From an uncultured Bacillota bacterium (GTDB lineage: Bacteria; Bacillota; Dehalobacteriia; UBA7702), in contig CAKUYE010000001.1 of NCBI GenBank assembly GCA_934702375.1, positions 11,275-75,274 of the forward strand: a stretch of 64,000 nt of DNA, given 5' to 3'. Numbering within the stretch: position 1 is the first letter of the stretch; the number at the start of each line of letters is the position of its first letter. Below are positions 32,709-42,812 of this stretch, piece by piece. The position numbers and the translations under genes were made by a program. The notes under the pieces are model-generated. The model saw only the letters and a list, made by a program, of their open reading frames with translations. It was not told where the DNA came from and did no database searches.

Positions 32709-34333
32709 CTAATCCAAGCAAATCTCCTTCGTAAAGCCCATTGCCGAAGGATCTTCATGGGAAACGACCATTAAGATACCGCTATAATGCCAACGTTCCA
32801 GAATTTTTGTCAACAAATCCCGGGTCGATTCGTCCAAGTTCGAGAAAGGCTCGTCCATAATAACCACTTCCTTACCGGATAAAATCGCCCGAACGATGGC
32901 AATCATTTGCATTTGCCCGCCGGAGACACCGGAAAGGTGCTGCTGAATATCGGTATCCAGCCCTTGGGGAAAGGTTTCAAAATAGGCCGTTAAGTCCAGC
33001 TCTGCCAAAAGCTTTTGAACATCGGCACGGGTTTTTCCGTGCAGTCCGATGAAAAGATTATCAAGTACAGAGCCTTTGAATAAAAAGATGTGTTGAGATA
33101 CCACGGCAATATGCTCTCGGATGCTTTTCACCGCCAGCTCCGTTGCATCCACCTCATTATAGAGGATTTGCCCGGACACAGGAGCATATAACCCCAGCAT
33201 CAATTTTACCACCGTAGATTTTCCGGAACCGTTCTTCCCGCGGAGCAAAACCCGGTCACCGGAATGAAGCGCAAAGCTGCACCCTGTCAAAACCTCATGT
33301 TCATCGTAGGAAAAGGAAACATTCTCAAAAGAAATATTGGAGATTTTTTCGGAAACCTCCCTGCCCTTTTCATTTTCACTGTCCCTGGAGAACAAGGCAT
33401 TGATCCGCTCCATACTGCGAAAAGGCTGTTCCAAAGCAATCCGCAAATTGCCCAGACAGAGGATTCCGCTGGTAACATAGGAGAGATACATAGCAAAAGC
33501 CGTATACAAACCAATAGTAACCTGTCCTTGAAGGATCAAGGCACCGCATAGGAGCAGCACAAAAACAGATTCCAGATTGCAAAGAAGGTTGATAAATTCA
33601 TCGTAACAAACAAAGCGGCGCTTCATTTTAATTCGGCTTAAAGCAAGATCAGCGGATTTATCGACGAAAGAGGAAAATCCCTCTTCACGACGGTTTAAAA
33701 CCTTAAAATCCTCTACTCCGTTAAGAATCTCATAGCCCTCACCGCTCAAGATACCATTCTTCTCCAAGGTTGCTTCAATGTCTCGTGCAATATGCTTTTC
33801 GTTATTTTTGGTAATAAAGAAAACCACGGGCAGAAAAACCAAGGAGATCAACGCCAACTTCCAGTGCAGCAAAAACATAACAATCAAGGCAAACATGGCA
33901 ATGACGATCTGACAAACGGTACTGATGGAATCCGAGGAAAACAGCGATTCCAATTCCGAACACTCTTCCATGCGGCTCAATAAATACCCCTTTTCATTTT
34001 TACGCAAATAATCCATAGGCAGGGAAACGATCTTTTCCATCAGCTTACAGCGCAGCTCATGGGCAAAATTCACGTTGATTGAGATAAGCAGACGATTCAT
34101 AGCTAAGGAAACAACGCATTTTAACAAATAGGCTCCCACCGTAACACCAATCAACAGCAAAAAGGTATGATAATCCCCGCCGCTATTTAAAACATCAATG
34201 GCTTGACCGATCAAATACGGCGTAACCGCCACCAAAGAGGAAAACAGAAAAAACACCAACAACCCAACGAGAATACTCCCTTTTTCACCGCCACAATACG
34301 ATCAAGCTTCTTTAATTCTTCCCATACCTTCAT
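32709..34333 (-). CDS. ABC exporter, fused permease/ATPase (type I half-transporter); N-terminus disrupted by an apparent -1 frameshift near 34265
   Basis: Six-TM domain plus NBD with Walker A GKNGSGKST, signature LSGVSGGQ, Walker B VVIMDEP; the track ORF starts at TTG (34262), but an upstream mini-ORF MKVWEELKKLDRIVAVKKGVFSLG in the -1 frame is a typical ABC exporter N-terminus. Confidence 0.75.
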
Positions 34334-34496
34334 GTCAATATCTCCCATACTCTCAATAAAAATACAATTGTTAAGCTATATCTATATTTTACAAAATTTG
34401 GCGGAAGTTGTAAAGCCAAACCTTGGCAATATCCCTTCAAATGCACTCCCTTATTTTTATAAAAATCCAAAAGATTGCGAAACTTTGAGAAAAAAC

Positions 34497-34524
34497 TTGA
34501 CAACAAGGGAAAAAAGCGTATAAT
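34497..34524 (+). promoter_or_regulatory. consensus sigma-A promoter (TTGACA-16-TATAAT) of the aromatic amino acid supraoperon
   Basis: Perfect -35 and -10 hexamers; about 200-nt leader follows before the first CDS. Confidence 0.6.
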
Positions 34525-34553
34525 GTAGAAAAAATGAAAGGGGGAGAAAAGAA

Positions 34554-34628
34554 GTGTTATTGAATTTACATCGATTTTATTATTTCAGCACGGACTTTCT
34601 GACTACCCTTTCAAATAGCCATCGCTAA
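34554..34628 (+). CDS. candidate aromatic leader peptide (GTG start; MLLNLHRFYYFSTDFLTTLSNSHR)
   Basis: GGGGGAG RBS 7 nt upstream of GTG; four consecutive aromatic codons TTT TAT TAT TTC plus another TTT; sits between promoter and leader terminator. Confidence 0.35.
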   Translation: MLLNLHRFYYFSTDFLTTLSNSHR

Positions 34629-34653
34629 GGTCGTATTTTAAAGAGTACGGAAA

Positions 34654-34710
34654 GCCCGCAATTCTACGTGCCCGAAAAAGGCAGTATTTGGATTGCGGAC
34701 TTTTTTATTT
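34654..34710 (+). terminator. intrinsic terminator in the leader of the aromatic operon (candidate attenuator)
   Basis: Interrupted hairpin CCGCAAT..TAC.TGCC-CGAAAAAG-GGCA.GTA..ATTGCGG followed by ACTTTTTTATTT, 12 nt before the RBS of the aminotransferase. Confidence 0.55.
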
Positions 34711-34721
34711 GGAGGACTGAA

Positions 34722-35924
34722 ATGAAAATGAATTTATCGGAAGAAATGATGATGTTAGGTAAAAAAAGCTCTGTGATTCGGGAAATCTTTGAATACAGCA
34801 AGAAAAGAAAAGCAGAGATTGGCGCAGACAAGGTATTTGATTTTAGTATTGGGAACCCCAGCGTACCGGCACCGGAAGAAATTGGAGAAACCATTGCCAA
34901 GCTGGCCCGGGAGATGGACCCTGTTTTACTTCATGGCTACACTGCAGCAGTGGGAGATCCCGGCGCAAGGGCGAAAATCGCCGAGGGAATCCACCGGGAT
35001 TTTCACACACCCAACCGTCCGGATCTCGTTTACATGACCTGCGGAGCCGCTGCATCTCTTACCATTTCCCTCAATGCCATTTTACAACCGGGTGAAGAAG
35101 TTCTCGTTCCCACGCCCTATTTCCCGGAATATAAAGTATTTACCGAACATGCCGGCGGCGTTCTGGTAGAGATCCCCTGTGATAAAGATTTTCAGCTGGA
35201 TCTTAATGCCATTGAAAATGCCATCACAGCCAAAACCAGAGCCATTATCATCAATTCCCCCAATAACCCCACCGGAGCAATTTTCCGCACCGAGGATCTG
35301 AAAAAGCTCTCGGCTCTTTTACAACAAAAGGAAAAGGAATATGACCGCACCATCTACATCATTGCCGATGAACCCTACCGCAAGCTGGTGTGGAACGGAG
35401 AAGAGGTTCCCTTTTTGCCGGAGCTTTACCCCGATACCCTGGTATGCTACTCCTACAGTAAAGCCCTCTCCCTCCCCGGAGAACGTATCGGCTACATTTT
35501 CGTAAGCCCTTATATGGAAGCATGCGGCGATGTTTTTGCCGCTGTTTGCGGCGCCGGCCGCGCCCTTGGATTTGTCTGCGCTCCGAGCTTAATGCAATTT
35601 ATGATTGCAGAATGTGCCGACTGCACCGCAGATTTCCGTATTTACCGTAAAAACAGAGAACGACTCATGGAAATGCTCACGGACATCGGCTACGAAGTGA
35701 TTCCCCCCGACGGTGCCTTCTACCTGTTTGTGAAAGCTCTGGAACCCGATGCCCATGCCTTCTATGAAAAAGGGAAAAAACATGAGCTGCTACTGGTTCC
35801 CAGTGATTCCTTTGGCTGCACCGGCTATGTACGTATTGCATACTGCGTAACACCGGAACAGATTGAAGCTGCCAAACCGGCATTTGAAGCCCTGTACCGG
35901 GATTATCAGGAAGGGAATGATTAA
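34722..35924 (+). CDS. class I/II PLP-dependent aminotransferase (probable aromatic/aspartate aminotransferase)
   Basis: 401 aa; fold-type I aminotransferase motifs (NPSVPAP, INSPNNPTG, SYSKALSLPGERIGY with the Lys); first gene of the aro/phe/tyr cluster. Confidence 0.75.
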   Translation: MKMNLSEEMMMLGKKSSVIREIFEYSKKRKAEIGADKVFDFSIGNPSVPAPEEIGETIAKLAREMDPVLLHGYTAAVGDPGARAKIAEGIHRDFHTPNRPDLVYMTCGAAASLTISLNAILQPGEEVLVPTPYFPEYKVFTEHAGGVLVEIPCDKDFQLDLNAIENAITAKTRAIIINSPNNPTGAIFRTEDLKKLSALLQQKEKEYDRTIYIIADEPYRKLVWNGEEVPFLPELYPDTLVCYSYSKALSLPGERIGYIFVSPYMEACGDVFAAVCGAGRALGFVCAPSLMQFMIAECADCTADFRIYRKNRERLMEMLTDIGYEVIPPDGAFYLFVKALEPDAHAFYEKGKKHELLLVPSDSFGCTGYVRIAYCVTPEQIEAAKPAFEALYRDYQEGND

Positions 35925-35925
35925 A

Positions 35926-37020
35926 ATGAGTTCATTGGAGGATGCCCGCAAAAAGATCAATGAGATCGACCGCAAAATGGCCGATCTCTTTACCCAACGA
36001 ATGCACGCCGCAGAACAGGTTGCAAACTATAAAATGCAGGCAGGCTTACCCATTTACGATCAGGCAAGAGAAGATGAAGTGATCGAAAAAAACAGAGCCT
36101 TTGTTCCCGAGGAAGAGCTGCAATCCTATTACGTGAATTTTCTGAAAAGCAACATGATTATTTCCCGCCGTTATCAGCGCCGCCTTTTAGACGGTATGCG
36201 CGTTGCCTACAGCGGCGTTCCCGGAGCTTTTGCCGCTACGGCAGCCCAGCGGATCTTCCCCGACGGCACACCGGTCCCCCACAAAGACTTCGCCGCCGCC
36301 TACGAAGCCGTAACCAAGGGTGAATGTGATTGCGCCGTTTTACCCTTGGAAAACAGCTTTGCCGGCGATGTTTCTCAAGTAATGGATCTGGCATTTTTCG
36401 GCGATTTATACATCAACGGCATCTATGACCTGGAAATCACGCAGAACCTCATCGGCCTCCCCGGTACATCGTTAAAGGAGATCAAAAAGGTCATCAGCCA
36501 CCCCCAGGCATTGGCTCAAAGCGCTGCTTTTTTAAGAGAACATGGCTTTGAAACCGAGGAAGCCACCAATACCGCCGTAGCCGCCCAAAGCGTAGCGGAA
36601 AAAAAAGATCCTGCCTTTGCCGCAGTAGCCGGCGCCGAAACCGCTGCCCTTTACGGTTTACAGGTGCTGGAAAAGCGCATCAACGACCGCTCCGGAAATA
36701 CCACCCGGTTCGCCGTATTTTCCCGGCTGAATCATCAGGATCCTGCTCATGATAATTATTTCGTCATGAACTTCACCGTAAAAAACGAAGCCGGCTGCCT
36801 GGGGAAAGCGGTATCCGCCATTGGGGAATTGGGTTTTAATCTTCGCGCTTTAAAGAGTCGTCCCACCAAAGAACTGATTTGGGAATACTACTTCTATGCC
36901 GAAGGAGAAGGCAACATCAACAGCAAGGACGGCATCTGTTTGCAAAAACGATTACAGGAGCTTTGCAGCGATGTGCGCATTTTAGGCAGCTTCGACCGGG
37001 AACGCGTGCTGGATCGATAA
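35926..37020 (+). CDS. pheA: bifunctional chorismate mutase / prephenate dehydratase (P-protein)
   Basis: N-terminal AroQ-type chorismate mutase helix (LEDARKKINEIDRKMADLFTQRM); PDT domain with ESRP-like motif (ALKSRPTK) and C-terminal ACT domain. Confidence 0.85.
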   Translation: MSSLEDARKKINEIDRKMADLFTQRMHAAEQVANYKMQAGLPIYDQAREDEVIEKNRAFVPEEELQSYYVNFLKSNMIISRRYQRRLLDGMRVAYSGVPGAFAATAAQRIFPDGTPVPHKDFAAAYEAVTKGECDCAVLPLENSFAGDVSQVMDLAFFGDLYINGIYDLEITQNLIGLPGTSLKEIKKVISHPQALAQSAAFLREHGFETEEATNTAVAAQSVAEKKDPAFAAVAGAETAALYGLQVLEKRINDRSGNTTRFAVFSRLNHQDPAHDNYFVMNFTVKNEAGCLGKAVSAIGELGFNLRALKSRPTKELIWEYYFYAEGEGNINSKDGICLQKRLQELCSDVRILGSFDRERVLDR

Positions 37021-37037
37021 CACAAAGGAGAAAACCT

Positions 37038-38033
37038 ATGGAAATACAGGTAAAAGCTGGGAGTCCCTACCCTATTTATATCGAAGAAGGCGCTCTTTCT
37101 CAGGCCGGCGAGTTATTCGAGCTAAACCGCAAAGCCCTCATCGTTACCGACAACGGCGTACCCAAAAGCTACGCGGAAACCGTTGCCGCAGCCTGCAAAG
37201 AGCCTTACATCGAAATTTTTCCGGCCGGTGAAGCCTCTAAGAATCTTTCCACCTGGCAAACCCTTTTAGAACGGCTCAGCAAGGAAAAATTCAGTCGCTC
37301 CGACTGTGTAATTGCCGTTGGCGGCGGCGTAACCGGCGACATGGCCGGCTTTGCCGCGGCCTGCTATTTAAGGGGGATCGACTTTTACAACATCCCCACA
37401 ACGTTACTGGCCCAGGTGGATTCCTCCGTCGGCGGAAAGGTAGCCGTAGATTTTATGGGCTATAAAAACACGGTAGGCGCCTTCTACAACCCCAAAGGAG
37501 TGCTGATCGACCCAAAGGTTCTGGACACACTGGAATATCGGCAAATCGCCTGTGGCTTGGCGGAAGCAACAAAAATGGCAGCAACCTGCGACGCTAATTT
37601 CTTCCAATGGCTGGAAGGAAATGACCCCTTAAAGAACCGCACCGAAATGATTCTGCGGGCAATTACGATCAAAAAAGAAATCGTCGAAGCCGATGAAAAG
37701 GAATTGGGATTGCGGCGAGTATTAAACTTTGGCCATACCTTAGGCCATGCCGTAGAATCGGCAACAGGCCTTTTCCACGGCGAATGTGTAGCCATCGGCA
37801 TGCTGCCCTTTACCGCAGAAGCAGACCGGGAACGACTAAAATCCCTGCTGCAACGGTTTCAATTACCAACGGAAGCCGGCGGTCAAAAAGAAAAAATTCT
37901 GGAAAATATCAAAATGGATAAAAAGATCACCGGCAACGACATTACCGTGGTTCGCGTACCGCAAATCGGTCAATACACTCTGGAAAAACTCTCTCTGGAA
38001 GAGTTGATCGCGCAGGTAAAAGAAGCGATCTGA
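37038..38033 (+). CDS. aroB: 3-dehydroquinate synthase
   Basis: 332 aa; GGGVTGDMAGF NAD-binding motif and metal ligands of DHQS. Confidence 0.9.
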   Translation: MEIQVKAGSPYPIYIEEGALSQAGELFELNRKALIVTDNGVPKSYAETVAAACKEPYIEIFPAGEASKNLSTWQTLLERLSKEKFSRSDCVIAVGGGVTGDMAGFAAACYLRGIDFYNIPTTLLAQVDSSVGGKVAVDFMGYKNTVGAFYNPKGVLIDPKVLDTLEYRQIACGLAEATKMAATCDANFFQWLEGNDPLKNRTEMILRAITIKKEIVEADEKELGLRRVLNFGHTLGHAVESATGLFHGECVAIGMLPFTAEADRERLKSLLQRFQLPTEAGGQKEKILENIKMDKKITGNDITVVRVPQIGQYTLEKLSLEELIAQVKEAI

Positions 38034-38063
38034 ATATAAAACAGATTGGTCGGGTGAAATGAA

Positions 38064-39302
38064 ATGAAATACGGATGTATCGGAGAAAAGCTGGGACACA
38101 GCTTTTCCAAAGAGATCCACCACTGCTTTGCAGCATATCCTTATGAATTAAAGGAAATCCCTCCAAATAACCTTGAGGCCTTTATAAAAAACCATGATTT
38201 TTCCGGTATTAACGTAACGATCCCCTATAAACAGGCCGTGATGCAATACCTGGATAAAATCAGCCCCCAGGCCTTGGATATCGGTGCAGTAAACACCATC
38301 GTACAACGGGATGGACAGCTATGGGGTTACAACACAGATTTTGATGGCATGAAAGCACTGCTTGCCCATATCGGTATAATACCAAAGAACAAAAAAGTAC
38401 TGATTCTGGGCAGCGGCGGTACATCTCACACCGCCCGAACTTTAATGAAGGATATGGGAGCAAAAGAAATCCTTATCGTCTCCCGTTCAGGGGAAAACGG
38501 CATCACCTATAAAGAAGCTACGAAACAACACCGTGATGCTCAACTCATCATCAACACCACCCCCTGCGGCATGAGCCCCAATATTTGGGATTGTCCCATT
38601 GACCTTACCAATTTTCATGCCCTGGAGGGTGTTGCCGATGCCATCTATAACCCCCTACGTCCTCGGTTGATACAACAAGCTCTGTCTTTAGGGATCCCGA
38701 CATCCGGTGGCCTCTATATGCTGGTAGCCCAGGCGGTACGCGCTGGCGAGCATTTTACCGGCACCACATTTTCGCCGGAGACCATTGATACCGTTTATAC
38801 GAAAATCAAAACCGCCAAGGAAAATATCGTGCTGACAGGAATGCCCGGAGCAGGAAAAACCACCATAGGCAAAGCCCTTGCAACAGCCCTGCACCGTCCC
38901 TTCTTCGATACCGACGAAGAAATTCAAAAACATTTTGCCAAATCACCAGCGGAAATCATTTCCGAGGAAGGCGACGAAGCTTTTCGTCAAAAGGAAACAC
39001 AGGTGATTCAAAACAGCTTGGCAGGAAAAAACGGGTGTATTATCGCCACCGGCGGCGGTTGTATATTAAAACAGGAAAATGTAGATGCACTAAAGATGAA
39101 CGGAAAAATTCTGTTTTTGGATCGTCCGCCGGAATTGCTGACCCCAACAAAAGACCGTCCCCTTTCCAGCAATCGCAAGGATCTGTTTCAACGCTATAAG
39201 GAGCGCTACCAAACCTATATAGAAACAGCAGATAAGATGATAAAAAATCAGGGGGACATGGAAAAAGCTTGTAAAGAAATCCTGGGAGAATATAAACTAT
39301 GA
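38064..39302 (+). CDS. aroE: fused shikimate dehydrogenase (N-terminal) and shikimate kinase (C-terminal)
   Basis: N-terminal half with AroE motifs (INVTIPYK, GYNTD, LGSGG); C-terminal about 160 aa with Walker A GMPGAGKTTIGKALA typical of AroK; single 412-aa ORF. Confidence 0.85.
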   Translation: MKYGCIGEKLGHSFSKEIHHCFAAYPYELKEIPPNNLEAFIKNHDFSGINVTIPYKQAVMQYLDKISPQALDIGAVNTIVQRDGQLWGYNTDFDGMKALLAHIGIIPKNKKVLILGSGGTSHTARTLMKDMGAKEILIVSRSGENGITYKEATKQHRDAQLIINTTPCGMSPNIWDCPIDLTNFHALEGVADAIYNPLRPRLIQQALSLGIPTSGGLYMLVAQAVRAGEHFTGTTFSPETIDTVYTKIKTAKENIVLTGMPGAGKTTIGKALATALHRPFFDTDEEIQKHFAKSPAEIISEEGDEAFRQKETQVIQNSLAGKNGCIIATGGGCILKQENVDALKMNGKILFLDRPPELLTPTKDRPLSSNRKDLFQRYKERYQTYIETADKMIKNQGDMEKACKEILGEYKL

Positions 39303-39733
39303 AAATTTTAGTCATTAACGGACCAAACTTAAATATGCTGGGAATTCGGGAGCCGGGCATTTATGGAAAGGAAACCTACGAGGATCTCCTCACAATGATC
39401 CGCAGCCACGGTGAAAAAAACGGCACGGAAGTTTCTTTTTACCAATCCAATCACGAAGGTGATTTGGTCGATGCCATTCAGGAGGCAAGAAACACGGCAG
39501 ATGGAATCATCATCAATCCCGGCGCTTATACCCATACCAGCATCGCTCTGCTTGACGCCGTAAAAGCAATTTCCCTGCCGGTAGTCGAAGTTCATATTTC
39601 CGACCCCGACACTAGGGAACCTTTCCGTAAAACCAGCTACATTCGTCTGGGCTGCGTTCATACCATCAAAGGAAAAGGTTTTGCCGGATACACCGAAGCC
39701 ATGGATTGGCTGGAGGCCCACTATGGAAATTAA
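39299..39733 (+). CDS. aroQ: 3-dehydroquinate dehydratase, type II
   Basis: 144 aa; MKILVINGPNLNMLGIREPGIYG start typical of type II DHQase. Confidence 0.92.
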   Translation: MKILVINGPNLNMLGIREPGIYGKETYEDLLTMIRSHGEKNGTEVSFYQSNHEGDLVDAIQEARNTADGIIINPGAYTHTSIALLDAVKAISLPVVEVHISDPDTREPFRKTSYIRLGCVHTIKGKGFAGYTEAMDWLEAHYGN

Positions 39734-40922
39734 AATCAAACCGGGGATTGCCCGAGGAAAAATTACAGCGCCGCCCTCTAAAAGTATGTCCCATCGATTG
39801 CTGATTGCCGCAGCACTGGCCCAAGGCACCAGCACCCTTCACCATATCGGCGCATCTGAGGATATCACAGCAACCATTGACTGCCTAAAGGCTTTGGGCT
39901 ATGAACCGAAGCAAAAGGGCTCTACGATACAGATTTCCGGCGGAATGCCAAAGTATACCGGCGAAACGCTTTTTTGCCGGGAAAGCGGCAGCACCCTGCG
40001 ATTCATGATTCCCCTTTGTCTGCTCACCGGTGAGAAAATCACCCTCCGAGGCAGCAAACGACTGATGGAACGCCCCCAAACCGTCTATGAGAGCCTCTGC
40101 CGCGAAAGACATTTTACCTTTTCCCAAACAGAGAATACCATTACGGTACAAGGTCGGCTCACCCCCGGAGAATACCAGTTGGATGCCGGCATAAGCAGCC
40201 AGTTCATCACCGGCATGATGTTTGCCCTTTCCACCTTTGAAACACAAAGCAAAATCTGCCTGACCGGAAATGTCGAAAGCCGCTCCTACATTGACCTTAC
40301 GATAAAAACCCTCAATGCCTTCGACATGAAAACAAGCTGGATCAGTGAAAATGAGATCCTCCTCACCGGTGAAAAAGGAACCGGCAAAGAGCTGACCGTC
40401 GAGGGAGATTACTCCAATGCCACCTTCTTTGCCGCCTTAAATTACCTGGGCGGCAGCATTGAAATCACAGGACTTGCTCCGGATTCTCTCCAAGGGGACC
40501 GAATCTATCAGGATTATTTCAAACAAATCGAAAACGGCTGTCCCACTCTTTCTCTAAAGGACTGCCCCGATCTGGGGCCGATTTTAATGACCCTGGCAGC
40601 AATGAAAAACGGCGCCGTTTTTACAGACACCGCCAGGTTGAAAATCAAAGAAAGCGACCGCGGTGCCGTTATGGCCCAAGAGCTGAAAAAAGCCGGCGTA
40701 ACCTGCCAATTAGAAGAAAACCGCATCATCGTTCCTGCAGGAGTATCGGTACCCAAAGAAGCCTTTTGCGGTCATAATGACCACCGCATCGTCATGGCTC
40801 TGGCCGTTTTGGCCACACAGCTCGGCGGAAAAATCATCGGCGCTGAAGCCGTAGCCAAAAGCTTTCCGGACTTTTTCCGGGAGCTGCAAAACTTAAACAT
40901 TGAGGTAACAAAATGCAGTTAA
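39723..40922 (+). CDS. aroA: 3-phosphoshikimate 1-carboxyvinyltransferase (EPSP synthase)
   Basis: 399 aa; PPSKSMSHRLLIAAALA N-terminal signature; overlaps aroQ and tyrA ends. Confidence 0.92.
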   Translation: MEIKIKPGIARGKITAPPSKSMSHRLLIAAALAQGTSTLHHIGASEDITATIDCLKALGYEPKQKGSTIQISGGMPKYTGETLFCRESGSTLRFMIPLCLLTGEKITLRGSKRLMERPQTVYESLCRERHFTFSQTENTITVQGRLTPGEYQLDAGISSQFITGMMFALSTFETQSKICLTGNVESRSYIDLTIKTLNAFDMKTSWISENEILLTGEKGTGKELTVEGDYSNATFFAALNYLGGSIEITGLAPDSLQGDRIYQDYFKQIENGCPTLSLKDCPDLGPILMTLAAMKNGAVFTDTARLKIKESDRGAVMAQELKKAGVTCQLEENRIIVPAGVSVPKEAFCGHNDHRIVMALAVLATQLGGKIIGAEAVAKSFPDFFRELQNLNIEVTKCS

Positions 40923-41779
40923 AAGAAACAACCCATATCTTAATCGTTGGCCTTGGCCTGTTAGGGGGCAGCTATGCAATGGCCCTCAGCAAAAAGGGTT
41001 ATCATGTGGAGGCCATCACCTTAGAGCCTCGAGACATCGAATACGGAATCACTCACAATCTCATTGAATCCGGCACCACCGAGGTTGAACCGGAAAGGAT
41101 CGCCAGAGCAAATCTGATTATCTTTGCTCTGTATCCCCACGTTTTTGAAGAATGGATCGACCGTTACGGAAATCTGATACAACCGGGTACCCTCATCACC
41201 GATGTTACCGGGGTAAAAGGGGCATTGTTGAATCGCATCCAAAGCAAGCTTCCGGATCAGGTTGAATTTATTGCCGCTCATCCCATGGCCGGTCGAGAAG
41301 TCAGCGGTGTAGAAAACAGTGACGATCGTATTTTCAAAGAAGCAAACTATATTGTGGTGCCTACGGAAAAAAACACGCCGGAAGGAATTGAAGCCTGCAA
41401 AGAGCTGGGCGCTCTTATCGGCTGCCGTCATATTTCCGTTTTAGAACCGGACAAACACGATGAAATGATCGCATTCCTATCCCAGTTGGCTCACTGTATT
41501 GCCGTATCCCTGATGTGCTGTCACGATGAACATAAATTGGTGGATTACACCGGAGACTCCTTCCGTGACCTTACCCGCATTGCGAATATCAATGACGAAA
41601 TGTGGAGCGAGCTATTTTTGGTCAACAAGGAACATTTACTGAAAGAAATGGATCTCTTTGCCGAAAACTTTTCTGCCCTCCGCAATGCGCTGGCCGGAGA
41701 AGACCAAGAAGAAATGCGCCGCATGATGCGACTTTCCACGGAACGCCGCTCATGGTTTGATAAAAAAGGAGATAATTAA
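40913..41779 (+). CDS. tyrA: prephenate dehydrogenase
   Basis: 288 aa; N-terminal Rossmann IVGLGLLGGS and TyrA dimerization domain. Confidence 0.85.
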   Translation: MQLKETTHILIVGLGLLGGSYAMALSKKGYHVEAITLEPRDIEYGITHNLIESGTTEVEPERIARANLIIFALYPHVFEEWIDRYGNLIQPGTLITDVTGVKGALLNRIQSKLPDQVEFIAAHPMAGREVSGVENSDDRIFKEANYIVVPTEKNTPEGIEACKELGALIGCRHISVLEPDKHDEMIAFLSQLAHCIAVSLMCCHDEHKLVDYTGDSFRDLTRIANINDEMWSELFLVNKEHLLKEMDLFAENFSALRNALAGEDQEEMRRMMRLSTERRSWFDKKGDN

Positions 41780-41780
41780 C

Positions 41781-42812
41781 ATGAATATGAAATTTATCAG
41801 AAAGCTGCCAATCCCCATGGACATCAAAGCCCAATATCCCGTCACAAAGGAAATGATGGCCGTAAAAAAAGAGCAGGATCAGGAATTGAAAAGGATCTTC
41901 ACCGGAGAAAGCAACCGATTTCTCTTAATCATAGGCCCTTGCTCTGCAGATAATCAGGAATCTGTCTTGGAATATGTGGGCAAGCTTCGGCGTTTACAGG
42001 AGCAGGTAGCCGATAAAATTATGATGGTCCCCCGGCTCTATACCAATAAGCCCCGTACCACCGGTATCGGCTACAAAGGGATGCTGCATCAACCGGATCC
42101 GGTAGAAAATCCAGATCTTTTAAAAGGCATTGTGGCCATTCGGGAGCTTCATATGAGAGCCTTGGCCGATTACCACTTCAGCTGTGCCGATGAGATGCTT
42201 TATCCGGACAACCATCGCTACCTTTCCGACCTTCTTTCCTATGTTGCCGTTGGCGCTCGTTCTGTGGAAAACCAACAACACCGCCTTACCGCCAGCGGTC
42301 TGGATATTCCCGTAGGAATGAAAAATCCCACCTGCGGAGATCCCTCGGTAATGATGAATTCCATCATTGCGGCTCAACATACCCAAAGCTTCATTTACCG
42401 CGGTTGGGAAGTCGTAAGTGAAGGAAATCCTCTTACGCATGGAATTCTTCGCGGCTACACCGATGAAACCGGCCGTTCCGTTCCCAATTATCACTATGAA
42501 AATATTATGGGCATTGCCGATCTTTACGAAGAATCCGGCCTTGCAAACCCGGCACTCATCATTGATACGAACCATGCAAATTCCGGGAAAAAATATATGG
42601 AACAAATCCGTATTGCAAAAGACGTTTTACATAGCCGCAAACAAAACGAAACCATTCGTCATCTGGTAAAGGGTTTGATGATCGAAAGCTATCTTATCGA
42701 CGGCTGCCAAAAGCCGGAAGAATGCGTATACGGAAAATCCATTACCGATCCCTGCCTCGGCTGGGAAAAAACCGAAAAGCTCGTTTTGGACATTGCAGAT
42801 GCTCTGGATTGA
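41781..42812 (+). CDS. 3-deoxy-7-phosphoheptulonate (DAHP) synthase, class I alpha (AroG/F/H type)
   Basis: 343 aa; family pattern including KPRT, GARS and IDTNHANS motifs; AAGGAG RBS; start at internal ATG 41781. Confidence 0.85.
   Translation: MNMKFIRKLPIPMDIKAQYPVTKEMMAVKKEQDQELKRIFTGESNRFLLIIGPCSADNQESVLEYVGKLRRLQEQVADKIMMVPRLYTNKPRTTGIGYKGMLHQPDPVENPDLLKGIVAIRELHMRALADYHFSCADEMLYPDNHRYLSDLLSYVAVGARSVENQQHRLTASGLDIPVGMKNPTCGDPSVMMNSIIAAQHTQSFIYRGWEVVSEGNPLTHGILRGYTDETGRSVPNYHYENIMGIADLYEESGLANPALIIDTNHANSGKKYMEQIRIAKDVLHSRKQNETIRHLVKGLMIESYLIDGCQKPEECVYGKSITDPCLGWEKTEKLVLDIADALD

Follow-up and report, generated by a model that had tools for sequence, protein, structure and literature searches.

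Leaders with Phe codons, or with both Phe and Tyr codons, control pheA in Escherichia coli and aroF in Corynebacterium glutamicum (PMC11802643). Among the Firmicutes, ribosome-mediated attenuation has been experimentally implicated for leaders rich in branched-chain amino acids in Staphylococcus aureus and Listeria monocytogenes (PMC6123439), and leaders with His codons have been predicted in the Bacillus cereus group, the Peptostreptococcaceae, and the Erysipelotrichales (PMC9413887).

The leader described here precedes eight aromatic biosynthesis genes in a stretch of 64,000 nucleotides, the whole of which was analyzed and is referred to below as the window. Judged from its sequence, it is very probably a ribosome-mediated (leader-peptide) transcription attenuator that couples the operon to the availability of charged Phe-tRNA and Tyr-tRNA. 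An earlier note on this DNA had proposed an aromatic-codon attenuator; the conservation of the ORF, the covariation of the helices, the link to aromatic operons, and the lack of an Rfam match support that proposal. The mechanism would be a textbook one, and the RNA appears to belong to no curated RNA family. Specifically, an Rfam cmscan of positions 33800-35300 at E ≤ 10 returned only a chance match to BLV_package, outside the leader, and a scan of 18 related loci at gathering scores returned no match. Neither Phe_leader (RF01859) nor the other Rfam leader families gave a covariance-model match to the window leader. The T-box, which the earlier note had reported as absent, was likewise unmatched (RF00230) in the window at E ≤ 10 and in the 18 related loci, and the riboswitch or T-box fold named there as the competing explanation is not supported. 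No description of the leader family was found in the literature searched, which lay mostly outside subscription journals.

Promoter and operon

The promoter that had been read as TTGACA-16-TATAAT is present, matches at 12 of 12 positions, and is conserved in relatives. Its elements are as follows:

34497..34502, + strand: -35 hexamer TTGACA (12/12 promoter match)
34519..34524, + strand: -10 hexamer TATAAT (12/12 promoter match), separated from the -35 by a 16-nt spacer

This pair was the sole perfect promoter match within 33500-36000. In the promoter scan overall, promoter-like sites were not in excess over shuffled sequences; the promoter is credited mainly because its -35 and -10 are kept at the same place in relatives. 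TTGACAAAT at the -35 occupies the same alignment columns, and the -10 is retained as GTAAAAT/TATAAT (alignment A2). Transcription probably starts at approximately 34531, some 7 nt after the -10.

The genes that follow the leader were assigned from their ORFs and NCBIfam:

34722-35924, + strand: PLP aminotransferase PRK06836
35926-37020, + strand: chorismate mutase/prephenate dehydratase (pheA)
37038-38033, + strand: aroB
38064-39302, + strand: aroE-aroK fusion
39299-39733, + strand: aroQ
about 39723-40922, + strand: aroA
40913-41779, + strand: tyrA
41781-42812, + strand: class-I DAHP synthase

NCBIfam bore out the aminotransferase-pheA-aroB-aroEK-aroQ-aroA-tyrA-DAHPS order given in the earlier note, with the aminotransferase ATG corrected to 34722. 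Based on their tight spacing and overlaps, the genes at 34722..42812 probably form a single operon. It covers Phe (pheA), Tyr (tyrA), and the common pathway, and none of its eight genes is a trp gene.

Distribution of the leader

A homologous leader stands ahead of the orthologous operon in 34 of 80 related genome loci, whose records are labelled Acutalibacteraceae, Oscillospiraceae, Ruminococcaceae, or Eubacteriales. The closest relatives (72-73% aminotransferase identity) carry it in four loci and provide three further distinct leaders. The leader also occurs on 32 metagenome contigs: the pattern scan of metagenomes gave 49 matches, of which 17 lacked the leader, were due to chance, and were dropped. 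As the pattern demanded part of the codon run, the metagenome sequences are not independent evidence for that run.

The leader occurs only where aromatic biosynthesis genes follow. Where pheA comes after the aminotransferase, it was found in 33 of 43 loci, as compared to 0 of 36 otherwise (Fisher p = 1.2e-13), and it also stands ahead of DAHPS-pheA-tyrA and pheA-aroB-aroEK operons. A search of the 64-kb window with the family profile (nhmmer) found no further copies; with a single copy, there is no sign of a wider regulon within these 64 kb. In five related operons without the leader, the promoter is followed by a perfect palindrome, GTTAACACTGTTAAC.

The leader ORF and its Phe/Tyr codons

The GGGGGAG ribosome-binding site and the 24-codon GTG mini-ORF with TTT TAT TAT TTC, as first described from the sequence, are all present:

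34540-34546, + strand: Shine-Dalgarno sequence (SD) GGGGGAG, 7 nt ahead of the GTG
34554..34628, + strand: leader ORF, MLLNLHRFYYFSTDFLTTLSNSHR, with a GTG start, 24 codons, and a TAA stop at 34626-34628; homologous ORFs in 59 distinct leaders
34572..34586, + strand: regulatory codons, Arg CGA (34572-34574) followed by TTT TAT TAT TTC (Phe Tyr Tyr Phe, 34575-34586)

Loss of this mini-ORF in relatives had been named as evidence against an attenuator. Instead, it is kept in 34 of 34 aligned leaders, in the 3 additional ones from the closest relatives, and in 31 from metagenomes. Every complete leader of these three sets has an SD, and its start codon shares the frame of the Phe/Tyr run. The N-terminus varies in length, and the run ends between codons 9 and 15.

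The composition of the aligned leaders supports translation. Over the 34 leaders, Phe and Tyr account for 58% of the codons in frame, whereas the two remaining frames give 20% and 12% and shuffles 28 ± 2%. Similarly, the leader frame contains no stops whereas the other two contain 6 and 26. Positions within the run are T, then T or A, then T or C, a periodicity that is the signature of Phe/Tyr coding. The codons of the run are TTT, TTC, TAT, or TAC, plus CGA, and any exchange within it either swaps Phe and Tyr or is synonymous. The Arg codon ahead of the run was CGA in 41 of 43 cases, as compared to 14% of the Arg codons in the operon genes, and leaders without an Arg codon have more Phe/Tyr codons in its place. 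The 59 distinct peptides are 17-30 residues long and contain 4-10 Phe/Tyr each, with at least three of these consecutive in 58 of the 59. A Trp codon is absent from all 59.

An attenuator of this kind could answer to one amino acid only, such as Phe alone, with the other codon type being tolerated as filler. We consider this unlikely, although there is a precedent: according to a review (PMC11802643), aroR of C. glutamicum (Phe-Tyr-Phe) is induced under Phe limitation and is unaffected by the availability of Tyr. Dual sensing in the window leader is thus not guaranteed. Moreover, the run of some close relatives (L081 and L084) is RFYF, with just one Tyr codon. Across the family, however, the two codon types are equally abundant, with 117 Tyr and 112 Phe codons in the 34 aligned leaders, and both occur in every one of the 59 distinct peptides. 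The operon itself makes Phe, Tyr, and the intermediates of the common pathway.

RNA helices and terminator

The leader, only about 170 nt long, contains four regions that can pair in alternative ways:

34535..34555, + strand: region 1, which supplies the 5' strand of the anti-antiterminator helix 1:2 in the minimum-free-energy fold; holds the leader SD and reaches into the GTG
34591..34613, + strand: region 2; its core, 34591-34604, pairs with region 3, and 34596-34600 and 34606-34613 pair with region 1
34616..34649, + strand: spacer between regions 2 and 3, with the leader stop codon and small hairpins at 34616-34627 and 34632-34649
34644..34658, + strand: region 3, antiterminator 3' strand; overlaps the terminator 5' arm at its base
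34656..34698, + strand: interrupted terminator hairpin (3:4); 34650-34704 when pairs between the A-tract and U-tract are counted
34701..34706, + strand: TTTTTT, the U-run of the intrinsic terminator; 34/34 aligned leaders have a T-run after the hairpin

The last two features confirm the interrupted long hairpin with a U-run that had been noticed earlier. The hairpin has an energy of -17.9 kcal/mol, or -24.5 kcal/mol with the A-tract/U-tract extension (z = -4.1). In all 34 aligned leaders, the T-run is abutted by a hairpin with an energy between -14 and -29 kcal/mol. A simple terminator scanner allowing loops of 3-8 nt did not report the hairpin at 34656-34698 because its loop is long and its stem interrupted.

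Folding for alternative structures, which the earlier note had suggested as a check, revealed that alternatives exist and that they covary. The duplexes in the window have energies of -15.8 kcal/mol for 1:2 and -15.5 kcal/mol for 2:3, and in the fold of the 34588-34660 segment, 2:3 forms at -20.2 kcal/mol (z = -2.8). The antiterminator and the helix between the SD and region 2 were not part of the earlier note.

From the raw MAFFT alignment, RNAalifold retrieved nothing but the 7 bp at the base of the terminator; the inner stems and helix 1:2 are out of register in a sequence-based alignment. The helices were therefore evaluated using named columns (2:3 and 3:4) and an alignment-free permutation of partners between sequences. 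The basal stem of the terminator was 95% paired over the 34 sequences versus 29-49% in slid controls, and 77% of the antiterminator cells were paired on alignment A2 versus 25-42%. Both helices covary: the terminator stem had 18 double-change cells versus 4.1 ± 1.6 in shuffles, and the antiterminator had changes on both sides (compensatory) in 11 of 14 pairs, a covariation reached by 0 of 500 shuffles, although these shuffle-based counts overstate independence as the sequences are mutually related. In the permutations, each helix favored its own partner, with z = -9.2 for 1:2 (-16.4 with its own partner versus -11.7 with permuted partners), -6.7 for 2:3, and -10.2 for 3:4. Three negative-control segment pairs yielded z values of about 0 to +1.

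The helices compete for the same nucleotides. Family-wide, 1:2 and 2:3 have 6 nt (median) of region 2 in common, and 2:3 overlaps the 5' arm of the terminator by 3-10 nt, with alignment columns 244-249 common to antiterminator and terminator. In the window, the antiterminator overlaps the core stem of the terminator by only 3 nt, or 9 nt including the A/U extension.

Counted from its final codon, the run ends 4-13 nt (median 6) before region 2 starts to pair, and its first codon is 16-29 nt from that region. The stop codon comes after region 2; in 33 of 34 leaders it precedes region 3, which it abuts in the remaining one (L031). Most relatives have a clear spacer hairpin of variable sequence, with the stop codon inside it or adjoining it (family mean z = -2.3; z < -1.5 in 25 of 34). 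The spacer hairpins of the window are weak (z = -0.6).

Two other explanations of the structured leader appear very improbable. The first is that it is a riboswitch, a T-box, or a protein-binding RNA whose U/A-rich recognition motif happens to read as a mini-ORF. The nucleotides of CGATTTTATTAC are strikingly conserved, and the bias toward CGA hints at a constraint beyond the amino acid. Nevertheless, Rfam yields no match, the T-box included; the SD and start codon stay in frame with the run despite variable spacing; the run varies only by Phe/Tyr codons and with codon periodicity; and leaders lacking the Arg codon compensate with additional Phe/Tyr codons. The conserved nucleotides outside the run are all explained by the three helices, and the stop codon is always between regions 2 and 3.

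The second, to which we give equally little credence, is a constitutive or leaky terminator, or an mRNA-stabilizing structure, with control of the operon exerted elsewhere, such as by a DNA-binding repressor. The palindrome in the five leaderless operons suggests repressor control in those lineages, but the window has no palindrome of this type. Moreover, with a consensus promoter on one side and eight biosynthetic genes on the other, a constitutive terminator would be senseless without a bypass, and a covarying antiterminator that overlaps the terminator is exactly such a bypass.

Finally, it is highly improbable that the mini-ORF serves to make a small peptide whose role lies outside attenuation: the ORF is conserved and has an SD, but residue conservation beyond the run is limited to D-C-L/D-F-L, whose codons are the antiterminator strand GGACUGUCUG that covaries with region 3, the termini and length of the peptide are free to vary, and the ORF is always joined to the terminator switch and to aromatic operons.

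Proposed switch mechanism

From the parts of the leader, their conservation and mutual overlap, the covariation of the helices, and the link to aromatic operons, we infer an order of events in which stalling of the ribosome would respond to both amino acids. Region 1 is the SD and start of the leader, region 2 begins 4-8 nt past the run and inside the ORF, region 3 comes past the stop codon, and region 4 before the U-run. Pairing of 3:4 would produce the terminator, 2:3 would act as an antiterminator by taking the basal nucleotides of the terminator 5' arm, and 1:2 would rival 2:3 for the core of region 2. When Phe or Tyr is scarce, the leading ribosome would stall on codons 8-11, upstream of region 2 and in the 1:2 loop. 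Region 2 would then be kept off region 1 and pair with region 3 as the latter emerges, such that no terminator forms and the operon is transcribed. When Phe and Tyr are plentiful, the ribosome would cross region 2 to the stop, 2:3 would be blocked, 3:4 would form, and transcription would end at 34701-34706. If the leader is not translated, 1:2 would form and hide the leader SD, and 3:4 would form and lead to termination.

Equilibrium folding of the window leader with a 30-nt ribosome footprint at codons 8-11 always yielded 1:2 together with 3:4. Antitermination must thus be kinetic or steric, and the thermodynamic minimum is uninformative on the decision. Because region 1 is upstream of the regulatory codons, a stalled ribosome leaves it uncovered; what keeps region 1 off region 2 would be a steric effect. 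The distances measured agree with such a switch; however, a ribosome stalled on the last codon of the run would cover the first few nucleotides of region 2, and one exactly on the stop codon would leave the core of region 2 uncovered in many members of the family.

Tentatively, the ribosome may act as a positional wedge and not as a mask, which would be a distinct attenuator architecture. Parked in the 1:2 loop, it would sterically bar 1:2 and license 2:3; parked at the stop, within the loop that separates regions 2 and 3, it would bar 2:3 and allow 1:2. In addition, 1:2 would close the ribosome-binding site of the leader, which would then be translated by the first ribosome only. If the wedge reading is true, the family would be evidence that a large clade of gut Clostridia depends on RNA polymerase and the leading ribosome being tightly coupled. 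Such coupling has been questioned for Firmicutes based on work in Bacillus subtilis.

Significance

If the proposed attenuator operates as outlined, one RNA switch that reads tRNA charging would control the synthesis of Phe, Tyr, and their common precursors in a mostly uncultured clade of gut Clostridia. The textbook picture of attenuation is unchanged. What the locus adds is a well-supported family of 59 distinct members outside Rfam, in which the same leader accompanies different orders of pathway genes. The palindromic operator that related operons have instead of the leader would be a clear regulatory replacement. What is unusual is that the leader's own ribosome-binding site serves as region 1, and an SD-containing region 1 makes for a directly testable model in which the position of the ribosome picks the RNA fold.

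Comparison with known systems

E. coli pheL-pheA and the classical enterobacterial attenuators (trp, his, leu, thr, and ilv) likewise have a promoter-proximal short ORF with tandem codons for the end product. The enterobacterial attenuators also share mutually exclusive terminator and antiterminator helices, with a third helix favoring termination when the leader is untranslated, and the genes controlled by pheL likewise include the chorismate mutase/prephenate dehydratase. However, the window leader has no sequence or covariance-model similarity to pheL-pheA (RF01859), its codons are mixed Phe and Tyr in place of a pure Phe run, and its operon is an eight-gene supraoperon. In enterobacterial leaders, the regulatory codons are inside region 1. 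Here, in contrast, the SD and start of the leader make up region 1, and the 1:2 loop contains the regulatory codons.

The aroR leader ahead of the aroF (DAHP synthase) operon of C. glutamicum (Neshat et al. 2014, as relayed in PMC11802643) similarly combines Phe and Tyr codons with ribosome stalling. It is actinobacterial and its run is shorter, and in that secondary account Tyr is reported to be without effect (PMC11802643). The likeness is functional only. The predicted uORFC-13-1 of Acholeplasma aroF, compared here by its description only, likewise carries Phe codons and is accompanied by a promoter, a ribosome-binding site, and a terminator stem next to it, but it belongs to the Acholeplasma lineage and has a U run coding for at least one Phe (PMC8632094).

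The described leader-peptide attenuators of Firmicutes (PMC6123439, PMC9413887) have the phylum and the class of mechanism in common with the window leader, whereas their amino acids and operons are different and their sequences unrelated. The T-box (RF00230) is also found upstream of amino acid operons in Firmicutes and also senses tRNA charging through competition between a terminator and an antiterminator. Unlike a T-box, the window leader has no T-box sequence, specifier loop, or model match, and it would sense charging through the translating ribosome rather than by direct binding of tRNA.

Organization of the leader and its operon

The promoter, ribosome-binding site, mini-ORF, aromatic codon run and interrupted hairpin with U-run described in the earlier note were all located where it had placed them, and the downstream cluster of aromatic biosynthesis genes was verified using NCBIfam.

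Features of the leader (the RNA stretch between promoter and aminotransferase gene) and neighbouring genes, window positions
32709-34262, minus strand: ABC transporter gene, upstream and divergent
34497-34524: promoter, TTGACA, 16-nt spacer, TATAAT
34540-34546: SD GGGGGAG, 7 nt 5' of the GTG at 34554
34554 to 34626-34628: leader ORF (mini-ORF), GTG to TAA, 24 codons, peptide MLLNLHRFYYFSTDFLTTLSNSHR
34575-34586: run of Phe/Tyr codons, TTT TAT TAT TTC
34656-34698: terminator hairpin, long and interrupted, −17.9 kcal/mol
34701-34706: U-run TTTTTT, 3' of the terminator hairpin
34722: ATG start of the aminotransferase gene
Predicted operon (genes by NCBIfam): PLP aminotransferase, chorismate mutase/prephenate dehydratase, aroB, aroE-aroK fusion, aroQ, aroA, tyrA, class-I DAHP synthase

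A promoter scan of 33500-36000 returned the site at 34497-34524 as the sole 12/12 match. Including flanking A/U pairs, the terminator hairpin of the window had a folding energy of −24.5 kcal/mol (z = −4.1). Because the upstream ABC transporter gene is divergent, the terminator is not that of an adjacent gene. A promoter-like site, TTTACA-17-TAAAAT (34386-34414, minus strand), lies in the common intergenic region, oriented to the divergent gene. The window operon (34722-42812) has no chorismate synthase gene; aroC is directly 3' of aroB in the closest relatives (loci L081, L082 and L084), and supraoperon gene order differs among lineages sharing the leader.

Distribution and gene context

Homologues of the aminotransferase were at most 73% identical, except for one 99% match on a short metagenome contig. 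One genome per species was scanned using an aminotransferase protein alignment, yielding 80 loci, mostly from MAGs labelled Acutalibacteraceae, Oscillospiraceae, Ruminococcaceae or Eubacteriales. Inspection of upstream regions revealed a clearly homologous leader in many of these; a profile search detected it in 34 and matched the window once, at 34539-34709. Three of the closest relatives (72-73% identity; exact protein look-up) also carry the leader, with the peptides MLKVFNRFYFSNTDFLPASFVR, MADMIHRFYYCNTDFLSTADCER and MLKNFNRFYFSNTDFLPASCEK. Scanning metagenome contigs with a sequence pattern gave 49 matches: the profile confirmed 32 as leaders, and the remaining 17 are due to chance.

The leader occurred in 33 of 43 loci in which pheA and aroB follow the aminotransferase and in 0 of 36 with a stand-alone aminotransferase (Fisher p = 1.2e-13); one leader-bearing contig was too short for a gene-context call. 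On metagenome contigs, it also precedes operons starting with DAHP synthase (L093, L104, L119, L121 and L123) or pheA (L106). Given this varied first gene, the leader goes with Phe/Tyr and common-pathway biosynthesis rather than with any single gene.

The leader is missing from five orthologous aminotransferase-pheA-aroB operons (L028, L047, L048, L054 and L064). Between consensus promoter and SD, in the 60-120 nt 5' of the aminotransferase start (~1180-1240 in L054), these have a perfect palindrome, (G)GTTAACACTGTTAAC(C), of which a second copy lies near the divergent upstream gene in L028 and L064. The palindrome resembles an operator for a DNA-binding repressor; a transcription factor thus seems to have replaced the attenuator in those operons. 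At locus L002, a 278-nt element (2707-2984) is inserted between leader terminator and aminotransferase gene; it has 27-nt terminal inverted repeats (TTTAGGGTGAAAAGAGTCATCCGAACC / GGTTCGGATAATTCCTTTCACCCTAAA, 89% complementary) and looks like a MITE-type insertion.

The mini-ORF as coding sequence

Conservation of the mini-ORF in relatives, which the earlier note had proposed to check, was borne out: frame and run are kept in the closest relatives and in all 34 aligned leaders, each of which has an SD and an ATG, GTG or TTG in frame with the run. The aligned peptides are 17-30 aa long. Since the run ends anywhere from codon 9 to 15 and the start stays in frame, the frame survives indels. Between codon 2 and the run end, Phe and Tyr account for 207 of 357 in-frame codons (58%), with zero stops, versus 20% and 12% in the other two frames (6 and 26 stops) and 28 ± 2% in shuffled sequences. 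The codons of the run (TAT 77, TTT 67, TAC 23, TTC 5, CGA 13 and four others) indicate that variation stays within Phe/Tyr coding options. Pooling all sources gave 59 distinct peptides, each with 4-10 Phe/Tyr residues and 58 with at least three in succession; the metagenome leaders among them were chosen by a pattern containing part of the run and are thus independent evidence only for start codon, SD and gene context.

The aligned leaders use Tyr (117) and Phe (112) equally often and contain no Trp codons. Less probably, a single amino acid may be sensed: Tyr reportedly had no effect on aroR of C. glutamicum (PMC11802643).

Directly 5' of the run (34572-34574 in the window), an Arg codon is CGA in 41 of the 43 leaders that have it and CGG in L084; leaders without this Arg have additional Phe/Tyr codons. 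Among Arg codons of the window operon genes, 17 of 125 are CGA. Slow decoding of the CGA may position the ribosome, or the codon may simply reflect shared ancestry.

Three mutually overlapping helices

Four regions of the leader pair alternatively: region 1 (SD/start segment), region 2 (inside the ORF, after the run), region 3 (after the stop) and region 4 (before the U-run). The terminator, 3:4, is a hairpin in two parts (−14 to −29 kcal/mol) that adjoins a T-run in 34 of 34 leaders. Its inner sequence is wholly different among members, with pairing retained. The basal seven pairs were 95% paired, versus 29-49% with a slid partner, and had 18 double-change cells versus 4.1 ± 1.6 in shuffles.

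In the antiterminator, 2:3, the segment GGACUGUCUGUAC immediately 3' of the run (window version CGGACUUUCUGACU, 34591-34604) pairs with UAUAGACAGUCC, located just 5' of and into the terminator 5' arm (34644-34658 in the window). On the MAFFT alignment of the 34 leaders (A2), 77% of cells were paired versus 25-42% in slid controls. Two-sided changes occurred in 11 of 14 pairs, with 36 double-change cells versus 15.8 ± 3.4 in shuffles; 0 of 500 shuffles matched the observed covariation. This helix and the terminator arm have 3-10 nt in common; both 2:3 and 3:4 take in alignment columns 244-249. Folded alone, window positions 34588-34660 formed 2:3 (−20.2 kcal/mol, z = −2.8).

The anti-antiterminator, 1:2, had gone unnoticed in the earlier note. 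It joins the SD/start segment to region 2 and nucleotides 3' of that region, overlaps 2:3 in region 2 by a median of 6 nt and encloses the regulatory codons in a loop of 38-58 nt.

Pairings in the window and related loci
2:3, window: region 2 ACGGACUUUCUGACUA, region 3 GAGUACGGAAAGCCCGC
2:3, L001: region 2 UUGGAUUGUCUGUACU, region 3 CGUAUAGACAGUCCGC
2:3, L043: region 2 GCGGACGUUUUAUGC, region 3 AUAUAAAACGGUCCGCA
2:3, L018: region 2 AGGGCUGUCCGCUUUC, region 3 CGAAGUGGACAGUCCG
1:2, window: GAAAGGGG (34536-34542 and onward) with CCCUUUC; GAGAA with UUUCU
1:2, L015: GGAGUUUCG with CGGAACUCU
1:2, L051: AGAGGAGACAG with CUGUCU-UA-CCUCU
1:2, L043: GAGGUGCGUAAAGUG with ACGUUUUAUGCAACUC

As the pairing register differs among members, the helices were evaluated without alignment by comparing each sequence's own segments with segments permuted between sequences. 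Control pairs (1 with 4, the 5' part of the ORF with 2, and 2 with 4) had no partner preference (z 0.1 to 1.0). The alternative structures that the note had suggested looking for are present, as three overlapping, partner-specific helices.

Alignment-free test (kcal/mol)
1:2: own −16.4, permuted −11.7, z −9.2
2:3: own −17.5, permuted −14.3, z −6.7
3:4: own −16.9, permuted −11.6, z −10.2

In most leaders, the interval separating regions 2 and 3 (A2 columns 186-236; window 34616-34649) holds a further hairpin, whose sequence varies and whose loop contains or adjoins the stop codon, as in GCAAG-UAA-UUGC of L001 and L012. Its mean z was −2.3, and it is weak in the window. Pausing, spacing and ribosome positioning are conceivable roles.

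Proposed mechanism

Frame conservation, covarying helices and operon association support the earlier reading of an aromatic-codon leader as a regulatory device: the leader is very probably a Phe/Tyr-responsive leader-peptide transcription attenuator. A riboswitch, T-box or protein-binding RNA is unlikely. Consistent with the T-box absence noted earlier, the window leader had zero Rfam matches, even at E ≤ 10, and no Rfam family reached the gathering score in 18 related loci; moreover, the sole conserved unpaired stretch shows codon periodicity, with an in-frame start everywhere. A constitutive terminator is highly improbable and a peptide with a function of its own barely credible, as each leaves the covarying switch unexplained.

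Both the elements and the way they overlap are consistent with classical attenuation, the first run codon being 16-29 nt upstream of region 2. We infer three states. A ribosome stalled at the run would free region 2 to pair with region 3, and the terminator base would be lost. An unstalled ribosome would read through region 2 to the stop between regions 2 and 3, allowing the terminator to form. In an untranslated leader, 1:2 would form and 3:4 follow. Equilibrium folding cannot show these steps because its minimum is always 1:2 plus 3:4.

The architecture is peculiar: the ribosome-binding site of the leader itself serves as region 1, and the regulatory codons fall within the 1:2 loop. Tentatively, a stalled ribosome might preclude 1:2 by filling this loop, without covering region 1, and 1:2 might close the leader SD once the first ribosome has gone by.

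Relation to known systems

Leader-peptide attenuation is a textbook mechanism. The present leader family is solid and unannotated, in Oscillospirales-type Clostridia, and its mechanism class is already known; no description of it was found in the literature searched or in Rfam 15. Phe or Phe/Tyr codons occur in the leaders of pheL-pheA in E. coli and aroR-aroF in C. glutamicum (PMC11802643), and in Acholeplasma the region before aroF carries an upstream-ORF motif that contains Phe codons (PMC8632094). Within Firmicutes, ribosome-mediated attenuation has experimental support for branched-chain amino acids (PMC6123439) and is predicted for histidine (PMC9413887).
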